A stretch of DNA of 64,000 nt from NCBI GenBank assembly GCA_963705105.1, contig CAVPIW010000009.1:128001-192000 (forward strand), given 5' to 3'. Positions 17,961 to 21,749 of the stretch are shown one piece after another. The notes beneath the pieces were generated by a model. It was not told where the DNA came from. It did not search any database and saw nothing but the letters and a program-made list of their open reading frames with translations. The position numbers were made by a program, and so were the translations under genes. Source of the DNA: an uncultured Nitrospiraceae bacterium. Lineage in GTDB: Bacteria; Nitrospirota; Thermodesulfovibrionia; Thermodesulfovibrionales; Dissulfurispiraceae. Positions within the stretch are counted from its first letter, which is position 1; every line of letters begins with the position of its first letter.

Positions 17961-18776
17961 TCATCCGAATAGACGGCAGTCCGCGCAATGTGCCGCTCTG
18001 CAAATCCCTGCGATGCCCTGGTGGCAGAGGGCGAAATCGTACTTCAGGGGGTCTCGGGGATCGAGGCGCCTCAGGGATTCGGTGATGTCCAAGGCCATTT
18101 TCCAGTCCATGCTCCTCCTGTTCGTCAGGCCGATGCACAGGGCGATCCGGGCGATGTGCGTGTCCAGGGGGATGACAAGTCCATTCTTTGGGATGCCCTT
18201 CCAGATACCGAGGTCGATGTCCCGGTCTCTCACCACCCACCGGAGGAAAAGGCTCATCCTCTTGCAGGTACTGCCGTTTTCCGGCGACGGGAAAAACTGG
18301 AGGAACCCGGGGGGGCGCACGTCCGCTCCATAGACGGCAGAGGTGTCGATCGTGAGAATGGACCGGACGAACCCGGTCATCGCCCTCTCCGTGGTCACGT
18401 CGCCGGGACGGAAATGAGCCATGAAAAGGGCCTCCAGGCTGCCGTAGCTCCTCAGAACCATGGCGACGACGTGAAGGAAGCAGGTGATATCGTCGGTGTT
18501 GTTAAAGCGGTATTTCAGGTCTGACGAGAAACGACGGAGGTCACGGCGGTCTGCGTTCCTCAAAGCCTCATGGGGACTTCCTCCCATCCGGGACAGGATC
18601 GCGCCGACGACGGGCTTGAAGAGATCGACCCTACCGTATGCGAAGGAAGAGGCTATGAATGCCGCGATTTCGGTGTCCGCCCGGTTTGTGTACCGGTGGG
18701 GGAATTCAATGGGATCCTGCCGGAGCCGGCCCTCGAAGTCGAATGTCCTGTAGAGCCTGTCCAGCCGCCGCTTCAG
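17961..18776 (-). CDS. TIGR02757-family protein (probable CTG start)
   Basis: DPIEFPHRY..EIAAFIASSFAYG lies upstream of the first ATG (18587); STCKR..LFLRWVVR, DLGIW, IPLDTH, DPLKYDFAL. Confidence 0.85.
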   Translation of the reverse strand: MKRRLDRLYRTFDFEGRLRQDPIEFPHRYTNRADTEIAAFIASSFAYGRVDLFKPVVGAILSRMGGSPHEALRNADRRDLRRFSSDLKYRFNNTDDITCFLHVVAMVLRSYGSLEALFMAHFRPGDVTTERAMTGFVRSILTIDTSAVYGADVRPPGFLQFFPSPENGSTCKRMSLFLRWVVRDRDIDLGIWKGIPKNGLVIPLDTHIARIALCIGLTNRRSMDWKMALDITESLRRLDPRDPLKYDFALCHQGIAGICRAAHCADCRLFG

Positions 18777-18794: not shown

Positions 18795-19292
18795 CTACCG
18801 GTAATTGACGAACTGGATGTGAATGCCGAAATCCGTTTCCTTGAACTTGGCAATGATCGCCTGGAGGTCGTCGAGCTTCTTTCCCCGCACCCTCACCTGG
18901 TCCTTCTGGATCTCGGCCGTCACCTTGAGCTTCATGTCCTTGATGATCTTGACCATCTCCTTGGCCTTCTCGGTGGGGATGCCCTGCTGGAGCGAGATGA
19001 CCTGCCTGACGGTGTTTCCGGCGGCCTGCTCAATCTTCCCGTACTGGAGGGCCTTCAGGGCGACGCCTCGCTTCACAAGCTTGGTCTGGAGGATGTCGAC
19101 GACGCTCTTCAGCTTAAGGTCATCGTCAGAAATGACAGTCAGCTCGCTTTTTCCCTTGTCAAGCTCGATGTCGCTCTTGCTTCCCTTGAAATCGAAGCGC
19201 TGACCTATCTCTTTCATCGCCTGGTTGACGGCATTCAGGACCTCCTGGAGATCCACAGTGCACGCGATGTCAAAGGTATGTTCTTCCGCCAT
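18795..19292 (-). CDS. yajQ: YajQ-family nucleotide/c-di-GMP-binding protein
   Basis: FDIACTVDLQE, RFDFKGS, QGIP..AK, IQKDQVRVRGKKLDDLQ, QFVNYR; RBS ggagga. Confidence 0.95.
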   Translation of the reverse strand: MAEEHTFDIACTVDLQEVLNAVNQAMKEIGQRFDFKGSKSDIELDKGKSELTVISDDDLKLKSVVDILQTKLVKRGVALKALQYGKIEQAAGNTVRQVISLQQGIPTEKAKEMVKIIKDMKLKVTAEIQKDQVRVRGKKLDDLQAIIAKFKETDFGIHIQFVNYR

Positions 19293-19313
19293 TGTCTCCT
19301 CCCTTTTCGATGA

Positions 19314-19499
19314 TCACGCGGTCGGCTTCCGCGACGTTTCCTTCATACTCTCCGCCGTCAATCGCAATAATTCCCGCGGATCGGGCTTGCAGACGGGACA
19401 GAACGGTTCCCCCAGGTCCAGGAGGCACACATGCCCTCATTCCGGACAGCAGATGCAGGCATGGACAGGCTCCCGGCAGACCGGACAGAGATCGGACAT
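19314..19499 (-). CDS. Putative small Cys-rich selenoprotein (61 aa; TGA at codon 21 read as Sec)
   Basis: MSDLCPVCREPVHACICCPE(U)GHVCLLDLGEPFCPVCKPDPRELLRLTAESMKETSRKPTA; TGA at 19437-19439; hairpin follows. Confidence 0.75.
19395..19436 (-). promoter_or_regulatory. Bacterial SECIS-like hairpin
   Basis: After UGA: GGGCA...CUCCU-GGACCU-GGGGG...UGUCC; G-initiated apical loop 17 nt from UGA. Confidence 0.6.
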
Positions 19500-19505
19500 G
19501 ACGAA

Positions 19506-19514
19506 ATTATACCA
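19506..19514 (-). promoter_or_regulatory. Extended -10 promoter (leaderless transcript)
   Basis: TGgTATAAT 6 nt upstream of ATG 19499; no SD. Confidence 0.65.
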
Positions 19515-19712
19515 CAGAGAGCGGCCGTGCGGCGGTCCCGCCCCGAGGGTGTTCATTTTCTCGCCTTTTCTTCGATAAATGATAGAGGAGCCTCATGCAG
19601 GCAGCAGGATTAATGCGTCCATGAATAAAACATTTGTAAAACCTATGCCGTTCCGTATTATGATACTGTGTGTACCGGTTTATCATCCCCGACAAAAGCA
19701 GGTGCGGTCCGT

Positions 19713-21749
19713 TTGAACACTGAACTGAATGATATACAATCCCTGATCAGGTCCCTCGCGGAGATCCAGCATACCATCTCGGAGATCGGCGACCTTTCCT
19801 TTGCATCCTACGACAGCCGGGGCGTTCAACTGTTGCCCCCGAGACGTGAAGACCGGTTGACGAGCACCATTCGCTCTCATCCCGTCGGAAGGGAGGAATA
19901 CGACAAGTACATCTCCCAGGGCGTCAAGAGGGCCGTTTTGCGGAAAGAGGCATCCATACTGAGAGGTCCTGCGAGCCAGCATAACATCTTCATCCCCGTT
20001 GATGTGAGTGAAGCACGGTTCGTCCTTGTCAGCAGTCCTTTCTATGTCTCGAAGCAGGATTTTGACGACTTTCTCAGGAGGAGGGGGCGGATCCCCGATC
20101 TTGCGTCGGGAAAGGAGGCCTTCCCCCCGCGCTGCAAGCTGAAGGATTCCGACTCGGCGCAGCAGGTGGCGGTCCACGTCAAGAAGCTCTTCGAGACCCT
20201 CCTGACGAGCGTCTATGAGCGGAACCAGAATTCCAGGCGGTATCTGTGGACGAAAACACTGATCGACGTGCTGCTGAACATGAAGCTGCCCCTGCCGATC
20301 GACGACGCCCACAGAATGATCCTTGACGCAATCCTCTTTCTATTCAGCGTGAACACCGCATCCATCATGGTGAAGAGGGGTGTGCACTTCGAGACGGTCC
20401 TTGCTCTGGGCAGCATGAAAAACGTCGTCGGATCTTTCAGGGTCCACGAGGATTCGCCGGCCCTGGCCCTGTCGGTGAAGAAAATGATCCAGACATCGCT
20501 CGTCAACCCGAAGGAGATCCTCAGCCTCGGACTCGCCGACGAAATCAAATCGGTCCATGTCTTTCCCCTTTCGTCTCACACCTTTCTTCACGGTCTGATC
20601 ATGATCTTCAACTCCAGGGTGTCACGTGACGAAGCGCAGAGCATACTCGAATTCTGCAGGCTCTCGAGCCTGATCCTGAAAAACCTCTCCATCGAAAACG
20701 ACTGCGACCGTTATGTCAACAATCTCACCATGCTCAATGTCGCCGTCTCAAAGATCGACCCCCGGCTCAACGATCCCGCTTCCCTCCACAGGCAGATCGT
20801 GATGACCGCTACGGATCTCCTGCAGGCCGAGAAAGGCTCCCTCATTCTGCCTGAAAACGGGGATCTCGTTATCAAGGCCGTCCGGGGCATCAACGAATGG
20901 CTGACGCATAACATCCGCCTGAAGCCGGGAGTGGGCATTTCCGGCATCGTGTTCAGGGATGGCCGGCCGATGCTCGTACGGAACGTCGACAGGATCGAGA
21001 TACCTGACTACAGACCACGTTTTCACTACCGGAAAAAATCGTTCATCAGCATGCCCCTGCAATTCTCCTCCGAAACGATCGGCGTCCTCAACATAACGGA
21101 CAGGCTTCACGGCGACGAGTTTACCGAACAGGACCTCAACATTTTGAAACACTTCGGCACCTATGCATCTATCGCCCTGAAGGTGTTCAGCTATCACCGG
21201 CTGGCCGAGCAGATGAAGGAACTCTCCATCACCGACCATCTGACGGGCCTTTACAACCGCAGGTACCTCCAGGAGCGGTTCAGTGAAGAGATCCACCGCT
21301 CCGACAGGTACAAGCTTTCATTCTCCGTCAGCCTCATTGACATAGACGACTTCAAGCTATTCAACGACAGCGAAGGTCATCTTGCCGGCGATGGCGTCCT
21401 CCGGGACCTCGCCCACATCGCCCGGGAGAACTCGAGGGCGAACGACGTCATCGCGAGGATAGGCGGAGAGGAGTTCGCGATCCTCATGCCCCAGACGGAC
21501 AGGGACGAGGCCTTCCTCGTGTCTGAGAGGATCAGGAAAACCATCATGGAGACCCTGACCCAGAACTGGAAAAAATTCCCCCGGTCGTCGGTGACGGTCA
21601 GCATCGGCATATCGACCTTTCCCCATCACGGCAAGACTGTCCAGGACATGATCGAAAAGGCCGACCTCGCCCTCTACCGCGCCAAAGCGACGGGGAAAAA
21701 CAGGACCGTCATTTTCGAGGAAGAACTCAGGCGAAGAGAGATTCCCTGA
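19713..21749 (+). CDS. Diguanylate cyclase (sensor/GAF + GGDEF)
   Basis: DHLTGLYNRR, DIDDFK..ND..GH..GD, RxxD I-site (RAND), GGEEF; GAF domain upstream; start uncertain. Confidence 0.92.
   Translation: MNTELNDIQSLIRSLAEIQHTISEIGDLSFASYDSRGVQLLPPRREDRLTSTIRSHPVGREEYDKYISQGVKRAVLRKEASILRGPASQHNIFIPVDVSEARFVLVSSPFYVSKQDFDDFLRRRGRIPDLASGKEAFPPRCKLKDSDSAQQVAVHVKKLFETLLTSVYERNQNSRRYLWTKTLIDVLLNMKLPLPIDDAHRMILDAILFLFSVNTASIMVKRGVHFETVLALGSMKNVVGSFRVHEDSPALALSVKKMIQTSLVNPKEILSLGLADEIKSVHVFPLSSHTFLHGLIMIFNSRVSRDEAQSILEFCRLSSLILKNLSIENDCDRYVNNLTMLNVAVSKIDPRLNDPASLHRQIVMTATDLLQAEKGSLILPENGDLVIKAVRGINEWLTHNIRLKPGVGISGIVFRDGRPMLVRNVDRIEIPDYRPRFHYRKKSFISMPLQFSSETIGVLNITDRLHGDEFTEQDLNILKHFGTYASIALKVFSYHRLAEQMKELSITDHLTGLYNRRYLQERFSEEIHRSDRYKLSFSVSLIDIDDFKLFNDSEGHLAGDGVLRDLAHIARENSRANDVIARIGGEEFAILMPQTDRDEAFLVSERIRKTIMETLTQNWKKFPRSSVTVSIGISTFPHHGKTVQDMIEKADLALYRAKATGKNRTVIFEEELRRREIP

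Follow-up and report, generated by a model that had tools for sequence, protein, structure and literature searches.

Bacterial selenoprotein genes of the fdhF and selD type have a stem-loop immediately after their in-frame UGA, with a G at the head of its apical loop; Cys-codon orthologues of such genes exist, and the genome encodes the selB, selD and tRNA-Sec machinery with which selenocysteine (Sec) is inserted. Here, we describe a locus of this kind in a 64,000-nt stretch of DNA from an uncultured Nitrospiraceae bacterium (positions 128,001 to 192,000 of contig CAVPIW010000009.1, assembly GCA_963705105.1; hereafter, the window). The locus, which lies directly upstream of yajQ, is very probably a genuine but unannotated gene that encodes a 61-residue selenoprotein and belongs to a family, found in anaerobic Nitrospirota, that had no name before; this conclusion is drawn from sequence comparison. 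It shares with the fdhF and selD-type genes the UGA, a G-led loop 16 nt downstream of it, the Cys-codon orthologues, and the insertion machinery, but differs from them in its protein family, which is new, and in its mRNA, which is apparently leaderless. The recoding mechanism itself is standard, and the novelty lies in the family, in a zinc-knuckle-type motif that contains Sec, in the leaderless arrangement, and in a link to the tRNA adenosine-34 deaminase TadA.

Two described groups of small proteins invite comparison. Members of NF041197 (CxxC_Se_CxxC; OS_HP3, or hypothetical protein DW) are likewise small (~55-60 aa), with CxxC pairs and one Sec, but their layout of CxxC ... GU ... CxxC leaves Sec outside any knuckle, whereas the window protein has nine Cys/Sec residues and carries Sec at the second position of a CPxCG-type knuckle. 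The NF041197 model, for which the curated cut-off is 40 bits, gave no match to the window protein at E values up to 10, and the locus went unmatched in the genome search at E values up to 1. The same genome does hold a member of NF041197 outside the window (G000:C5:511198-511356, L124:1489-1662; 49.4 bits, with one TGA), and the hairpin after its UGA is G-U-led. Small zinc-ribbon proteins of the FmdB family with a UxxU motif (TIGR02605), which are listed as predicted selenoproteins (PMC13188914), are a precedent for Sec as a zinc-knuckle ligand; this family gave no match in our NCBIfam scan, and its motif and length are unlike those of the window protein.

Results and discussion

A conserved reading frame passes through an in-frame UGA

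The candidate gene is a 61-codon frame on the minus strand with an in-frame TGA as codon 21 (Table 1). With this TGA read as U, the product is MSDLCPVCREPVHACICCPEUGHVCLLDLGEPFCPVCKPDPRELLRLTAESMKETSRKPTA, in which eight Cys, one Sec, and one His fall within 33 residues and Sec21 takes the second ligand position of a CPxCG-type knuckle (CPEUG). A sequence-only reading of the window had singled out this frame, opening at ATG 19499 with the TGA inside Cys-rich coding, as a hidden selenoprotein candidate; we reproduced it exactly, with all of the elements described at their places. A longer N-terminus from the upstream ATG 19556 was also considered and ruled out: M-x(2-4)-C stands at the start of the homologues, and conservation does not extend into the frames upstream. 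Gene callers miss the gene because the Sec codon resembles a stop.

We collected homologues by scanning species-representative genomes, which returned 184 relatives; the best 80 of the 184 were used, nearly all of them metagenome-assembled genomes of Nitrospirota or Thermodesulfovibrionales. A motif script matched 98 of 104 loci, leaving 86 distinct open reading frames (ORFs) once 12 duplicates were removed, and at the column of the window's TGA these carry TGA (66), TGC (15), or TGT (5). Four of the six loci missed by the script are TGA forms with small motif variants, and two weak matches lacking the family motif (L039 and L041) were excluded from all counts. In total, 90 distinct loci, mostly from Thermodesulfovibrionales, divide into 70 with TGA and 20 with TGC or TGT at the Sec column. 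The Cys-containing homologues that the sequence-only reading had proposed to look for therefore exist, and their Cys stands exactly at the TGA column, in the predicted CPECG knuckle.

The same division appeared in searches at other scales. A six-frame protein search of 41 related genomes, among them that of the window, gave 24 matches in 22 genomes, 22 of the matches with an in-frame TGA and two without. One of the relatives with the gene, G008 (L021), is complete in a single contig. Across an even sample of 401 genomes from the phylum, 90 genomes matched at E ≤ 1e-5, and an in-frame TGA, counted anywhere in the match, is present in 75 of the 96 matches listed. The matching genomes belong to the window's class and to one further family of the phylum (26/64), while two large families of the phylum gave no match among the genomes searched (0/75 and 0/28).

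Within 88 aligned sequences, C5, C8, C17, U/C21, C34, and C37 are invariant, and C15, C18, G22, H23, C25, D28, G30, E31, P35, V36, and P39 are conserved in at least 90%. Conservation after the TGA is at least equal to that before it; the residues past the TGA, on whose fate the sequence-only reading had staked its candidate, stay conserved, in fact more strongly. Third codon positions vary at the same time: C34 is encoded by TGT (40) or TGC (24), and P35 by CCT (34), CCG (20), CCC (8), or CCA (2). Codon 24 also varies (GTC 29, GTA 20, GTG 9, GTT 3), so that the window's GTG is not a conserved restart codon. Fixed downstream residues combined with varying third positions argue for one continuous frame, translated through the UGA, and this comparison indicates that the frame is under protein-level selection across the UGA.

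A few sequences depart from the common pattern. Three database homologues (P0008, P0020, and P0027) have R, W, or A at the Sec/Cys column, for which a real substitution or a translation under another genetic code are both possible; CGA and TGG are each one base away from TGA. Locus L040 (genome G005) is possibly a decaying copy, with C25 replaced by F, the C-terminal CPVC knuckle lost, and a long unrelated tail, and L115 is possibly a decaying Cys form, with an in-frame TAG at the E31 codon.

The organism encodes the insertion machinery and the TGA is authentic

The window's assembly (4.23 Mb, 99.4% complete) contains selB (362.6 bits against a cut-off of 242), selD (317.4 bits, with one in-frame TGA), and a tRNA-Sec (69.2 bits; called SeC with anticodon tca by ARAGORN). 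The organism thus encodes the Sec-insertion machinery, a point that the earlier reading had left for the genome to decide. Its selD, which lies outside the window (G000:C11:79300-80208, L009), is a selenoprotein gene in its own right, whose TGA falls near residue 11 and precedes a GGUCC-GUC-GGACC hairpin. Among the related genomes, selB scored over the cut-off in 40 of 41. The Cys-form genomes G009 and G028 are among these 40, so that having the machinery does not tell a Sec form from a Cys form.

Misassembly does not account for the TGA. No difference is listed at positions 19437-19439 in contigs of three separate studies (X1 record 2, X2 record 13, and X3 record 18), which retain TGA rather than TGC or TGT, and X3 record 18 has zero differences over 19318-19466; one of the three runs that cover the TGA may be the source sample.

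A SECIS-like hairpin is associated with the UGA forms

Published criteria for the bacterial selenocysteine insertion sequence (bSECIS) comprise an apical loop of 3-9 nt, an upper stem of at least 4 bp, a G within the first two loop positions, a distance of 16-37 nt from the UGA to the loop, and a minimum free energy (MFE) of at most -7.5 kcal/mol (PMC13188914). Directly 3' of the window's UGA, positions 19436-19432 pair with 19400-19396 to form a lower stem, and 19425/4-19421 pair with 19412/3-19409 to form an upper stem of 4-5 bp. The apical loop, UGGACCU(G) at 19420-19413, is 7-8 nt long, starts U-G-G, and lies 16 nt after the UGA. This geometry is that of published bSECIS elements, with an MFE of -14.2 to -14.4 kcal/mol. 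The selD and the NF041197 member of the same genome also have a short G-led apical loop soon after the UGA. A search of positions 19200-19700 against Rfam gave no match at E values up to 1.

The relatives are more informative than the window on its own. The 65 distinct Sec-form segments align without gaps and share a lower stem (GG.CA/UG.CC), a middle stem that varies, and an upper stem (C(C/U)CC/GG(G/A)G) capped by a loop starting U-G-G. In register, 89.2% of cells are paired, as against 44-54% once the 3' partner is shifted by 1-3 columns. At one of the upper-stem pairs, the Sec forms have U-G (31), C-G (17), or U-A (11). All four upper-stem pairs are formed in 58 of 65 Sec forms but in only 4 of 20 Cys forms (Fisher p 1e-8), and the mean hairpin MFE is -16.4 kcal/mol in the former and -10.7 in the latter (Mann-Whitney p 2e-6), although both p-values overstate the case because the lineages are related. 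Similarly, the loop base G27 is kept in 65/65 Sec forms and 11/20 Cys forms, and the Leu27 codon is CTG in 61/65 and 8/20, respectively. The Cys forms are spread over several GTDB families and genera, and the hairpin has therefore probably been relaxed more than once. Together, these comparisons point to a SECIS-like hairpin that is specific to the UGA forms.

Several observations weigh against the selenoprotein reading. Taken alone, the window hairpin folds no better than chance, at an MFE of -14.4 kcal/mol where 200 dinucleotide shuffles average -15.75 (z +0.49) and 134 of them fold at least as well. Covariation in the stems is weak: most changes affect one side of a pair, and the observed values are reached in 23-29 of 500 shuffles; such weakness is expected, however, because the conserved amino acids fix most stem bases. 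The genes next to the locus are heterogeneous among relatives (yajQ, nfeD, rarA/mgsA, and psiE). The metatranscriptome run X19, whose contigs cover only parts of yajQ and not the small ORF, speaks neither for nor against expression. The case for a SECIS accordingly rests on the comparison of relatives and not on the fold energy of the window's hairpin: the presence and geometry of the hairpin claimed in the sequence-only reading stand, and it is retained in UGA forms, whereas its fold in the window does not distinguish itself from shuffles.

Table 1 Features of the candidate selenoprotein locus and its neighbours (positions in the window)
Feature	Position	Strand	Details and basis
Selenoprotein CDS (predicted), 61 residues	19314..19499	-	ATG 19499-19497, stop TGA 19316-19314; homologue starts and conserved residues
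In-frame UGA predicted to be read as selenocysteine, residue 21	19437..19439	-	Column conservation; selB, selD, and tRNA-Sec; contigs of three studies
bSECIS-like hairpin	19396..19436	-	Directly 3' of the UGA; comparison of Sec and Cys forms
Extended -10 element (putative) TGGTATAAT	19506..19514	-	Ends 6 nt before the start codon
yajQ Shine-Dalgarno AAGGGAGGAG	19296..19305	-	Inside the 21-nt gap after the selenoprotein stop
yajQ (DUF520/UPF0234)	18795..19292	-	Pfam DUF520, 3.1e-61; immediately downstream
DUF2400 gene	17961..18587	-	After yajQ; matches the Pfam model from position 44 onward
GAF-GGDEF diguanylate cyclase gene	19668..21749	+	Divergent from the selenoprotein-yajQ operon

The family is absent from the catalogues searched

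With U read as C, scans against Pfam and NCBIfam gave nothing meaningful at E values up to 10. A RING/C3HC4 zinc finger was not supported: PF13920 scored 10.1 bits (E 0.76), below its cut-off of 27, and RING rows in Foldseek had E ≥ 5. A profile search of 1.84 billion cluster representatives found 31 proteins, one of them false and the rest Cys forms or C-terminal fragments, and a set of 5.8 billion sequences contained 89 such proteins, almost all without a recorded Pfam domain; those with a name are called 'hypothetical protein' or, twice, 'rubrerythrin' (JGI). Sec forms are represented in public protein sets by C-terminal fragments only (P0030, P0032, and P0101). None of the 119 families and subfamilies in Table 1 of a 2026 review of the prokaryotic selenoproteome has such a motif or description (PMC13188914).

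At the level of titles and abstracts, a literature search returned no paper on a bacterial leaderless selenoprotein mRNA and nothing relevant on bacterial zinc-ribbon selenoproteins, and none of the papers listed on Thermodesulfovibrio selenoproteins dealt with the present protein. The sequence-only reading had not recognised a named family and supposed that ORF callers had missed the gene; the searches bear out the first remark, and standard callers do stop at UGA21.

Promoter position suggests a leaderless mRNA

The sequence-only reading had also noticed the extended -10 element so close to the start codon that it proposed a leaderless mRNA. No Shine-Dalgarno sequence lies between this element and ATG 19499. 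Of the 80 distinct loci in which the start codon is clear, 57 carry an exact TATAAT 4-12 nt ahead of it, most commonly at a spacing of 5-7 nt, whereas only 42 of 7,020 other ATGs of the same loci, used as a control, have one at that position. Allowing one mismatch adds six further loci, and the TGn extension is present in 31 of the resulting 63. A Shine-Dalgarno-like motif was found in just 8 of the 80, mostly those without the -10 element. A two-hexamer promoter scan did not report the TGGTATAAT site, because it has no -35 match. A -10 element so placed would set the start of transcription at or next to the AUG, which suggests that the mRNA is leaderless or nearly so, as the earlier reading supposed.

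Two further observations concern gene starts in this family. One Sec form (L026/L090) has no ATG, GTG, or TTG before its first Cys, and its frame reads I-E-I-C where relatives read M-E-I-C, suggesting an ATT start on a leaderless mRNA. Genome G024 holds two paralogues (L022 and L042), one of the TATAAT/leaderless type ahead of psiE-yajQ and the other with a Shine-Dalgarno sequence, adjoining a DUF6866 gene on the opposite strand.

On the reading that we favour, expression of the gene would proceed in three steps. Transcription from the extended -10 promoter would begin at or a few bases from the AUG and yield a leaderless mRNA; SelB and Sec-tRNA(Sec) would then bind the hairpin right after UGA21 and insert selenocysteine; and translation would end 21 nt before yajQ, on the same transcript.

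The product is a predicted metal-binding module related to an extension of TadA

Among PDB structures, the profile matched best to archaeal RNA polymerase subunit B, at its C-terminal zinc ribbon (4qiw_B, E 3.8e-4; 3qqc_A, E 1.1e-3), in an alignment that lays C18-x2-U21-G-H and C34-P-V-C37 onto its two knuckles. Both proteins have two knuckles, C-x2-C-G-H ... C-P-V-C, about 12 residues apart; in the window protein, however, Sec replaces a ligand Cys, and an added CxxC, CxC, and His/Cys suggest a second site. The knuckles are also like those of small CPxCG zinc-finger proteins. In addition, C18-P-E-U21 forms a CxxU pair, of a kind described as common in redox selenoproteins (PMC13188914). The protein is probably a mini-protein that binds metal at two sites, with its Sec placed in a CPxCG-type knuckle.

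More tentatively, we propose how such a small, mostly loop-built module could be organised. C18-x2-U21 and C34-x2-C37 would be the two knuckles of a zinc-ribbon-like site, and C5, C8, C15, and C17 (plus H23/C25) would form the second metal site. Sec may serve as a metal ligand, as the reactive partner of a CxxU redox pair, or as both, and its selenol would make the metal site of the module more redox-responsive.

The one clear clue to function, a gene fusion, came from the longer homologues. All 12 of these (P0018 and P0102-P0112) are Cys forms fused to the N-terminus of TadA, and the fusion also occurs in L096, L101, L103, and L113. When a fusion protein was searched against the window's genome, it gave two matches, the TadA core at C9:59878-60315 (55% identity) and the small ORF (63%, with one TGA). 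In some Nitrospirota, then, the Cys form of the module is an N-terminal domain of TadA, whereas in the window the module carries Sec and has a gene to itself, on the contig that also holds tadA some 87 kb away. Because TadA is the only fusion partner found, we take the free protein to be a detachable accessory module, which may act on or with RNA- or nucleotide-handling proteins such as TadA and perhaps YajQ.

This functional assignment has several points against it. The zinc-ribbon match is marginal and covers only residues ~15-45. The AlphaFold2 model is of moderate quality (pLDDT 70.9, pTM 0.40) and consists mostly of loops with a C-terminal helix at 41-54, although such a loop-built pattern is typical of folds held together by metal. 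Foldseek found no match in the PDB at E ≤ 0.001, VIA-align found none with Z ≥ 2 among 48,161 chains, and the best scores in the ESM Atlas (0.88) all belong to unnamed clusters, which are leads only. The TadA fusions share a GHICSLD signature and look like a single clade made up entirely of Cys forms, with no Sec form seen among the fusions found. Finally, the spacing C15-x2-C18-x2-U21-x3-C25-(P) recalls a 4Fe-4S ferredoxin motif equally well.

This last point raises the possibility that the Sec protein is real but binds an iron-sulfur (Fe-S) cluster, with C15, C18, U21, and C25 forming a ferredoxin-type 4Fe-4S site in a tiny electron-transfer protein. The spacing fits CxxCxxCxxxCP, the same stretch gave weak profile matches to PsaC, the 4Fe-4S subunit of photosystem I (E 0.013-1), and the hosts are anaerobes with an abundance of Fe-S proteins; the catalogued selenoproteins moreover include predicted ones whose Sec lies in an Fe-S motif (PMC13188914). 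We nonetheless consider an Fe-S protein unlikely. There was no match to a Pfam Fer4 family even at E values up to 10, and residue 26 is Pro in only 22 of 65 Sec forms, Leu being commoner. Both C15 and C18 have exceptions (P0009, P0003, and L100), whereas C17, which falls outside the ferredoxin spacing, is invariant, and the strongest match to a solved structure is a zinc ribbon.

Genomic context and the connection with yajQ

The selenoprotein gene and yajQ are probably co-transcribed in the window. A consensus scan found no terminator-like site on the minus strand between the two genes, and yajQ is preceded by the ribosome-binding site that the sequence-only reading had marked after the stop (AAGGGAGGAG, 19305-19296). 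Across the 86 distinct loci, yajQ lies at most 200 nt downstream in 21, in five of which (L033, L035, L036, L040, and L098) its start overlaps the stop of the small ORF by 8-11 nt, and it follows behind a PsiE-like gene in four more, bringing yajQ linkage to 25/86. The next gene is otherwise nfeD (7 loci), rarA/mgsA (7 loci), a PsiE-like gene, or another gene; all of these neighbour counts are lower bounds, because some loci have little downstream sequence. The idea of a gene at the head of a yajQ operon consequently holds in only 25 of the 86 loci, making yajQ a frequent rather than a defining neighbour.

This variable context brings to mind a selenium-sensing leader, in which passage of UGA21, governed by the supply of Sec-tRNA, would control a coupled downstream gene (yajQ or others) and the peptide itself would be of minor importance. 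The gene does stand first in operons ahead of several unrelated genes, the ORF is short and apparently leaderless, and in the five loci named above its stop overlaps the yajQ start. Such a role is nevertheless very unlikely. Ten ligand-type residues, along with others, are conserved at the protein level across a bacterial class and beyond, and the module has been fused into TadA as a domain. Cys forms, which are unable to sense selenium, keep both the sequence and the neighbourhoods (L036 and L091 lie before yajQ), and in the window itself yajQ lies 21 nt away, with a strong Shine-Dalgarno sequence of its own.

For the encoded selenoprotein that we prefer, YajQ is a conceivable partner. YajQ-family proteins have been described as cyclic di-GMP (c-di-GMP) effectors that work with a LysR-type regulator in Xanthomonas and Lysobacter (PMC4199771, PMC6988422). 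The gene divergent from the selenoprotein-yajQ operon encodes a GAF-GGDEF diguanylate cyclase (Table 1); by analogy, this gene fits the c-di-GMP theme of YajQ, and the pairing may be meaningful. A complex prediction that combined the Cys form L091 with its own adjacent YajQ, each with an alignment, and two Zn (score 0.00, mark 0.32) speaks neither for nor against binding, and the literature search found no work joining YajQ with selenocysteine.

At its most ambitious, the functional proposal would cast the free-standing mini-domain, with its Sec-ligated metal site, as a detachable subunit that regulates TadA, and perhaps also the c-di-GMP effector YajQ, in response to redox state or selenium. 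Selenium or redox status would thereby be tied to A34-to-inosine tRNA editing or to second-messenger signalling in anaerobic Nitrospirota, and the mRNA would be the first leaderless one described for a bacterial selenoprotein. We regard this full version as quite unlikely, and offer it as speculation.

Further along the minus strand, yajQ is followed by a DUF2400 gene and then by a gene for a GT4 glycosyltransferase. A DUF2400 gene also occurs in a distant relative (L024:2171-3016), and the yajQ-DUF2400 order shared by the two suggests a conserved pair. The window's DUF2400 ORF aligns to no part of its Pfam model before position 44, so that the gene may in fact begin upstream of the ATG given for it.

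Other readings of UGA21

In one alternative, UGA21 would be read through by a near-cognate tRNA (Trp, Cys, Arg, or Gly), independently of SelB, and the residue inserted would not be Sec. The unexceptional folding energy of the window hairpin would suit such a mechanism, as would the few database homologues with R, W, or A at the column. Yet SelB is encoded by the organism and by nearly all of its relatives, Cys is the only residue that often replaces Sec at the column, as is the hallmark of Sec/Cys pairs, and the hairpin and loop-G features are kept specifically in UGA forms; UGA is also the ordinary stop of this same ORF. We therefore judge near-cognate read-through to be highly improbable. 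That UGA21 is a true stop, in a pseudogene or through an assembly error, with a 20-residue peptide or nothing made, agrees with the behaviour of standard gene callers and with the C-terminal fragments deposited for Sec forms, but is barely credible when TGA is retained at this column in 70 distinct loci, each followed by an intact and conserved frame, no restart codon is conserved, the Cys-codon orthologues are full length, and the contigs of three studies agree on the TGA.

Conclusions

The locus adds a selenoprotein family to a catalogue of about 119. The family is widespread in Thermodesulfovibrionia and related anaerobic Nitrospirota (90 of the 401 sampled genomes of the phylum) yet missing from annotation, which shows merely C-terminal fragments or 'hypothetical' Cys forms. 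A family model for NCBIfam or Pfam, built from the present alignments, would correct the annotation of hundreds of genomes.

With Sec at a classical zinc-knuckle ligand position, the family offers a clean natural test case for selenium in a structural or redox metal site, and it pairs a SECIS with an apparently leaderless mRNA. The role of the YajQ family is poorly understood beyond c-di-GMP binding in a few proteobacteria. The fusion of the module to TadA and its frequent place ahead of yajQ provide testable handles on both proteins.

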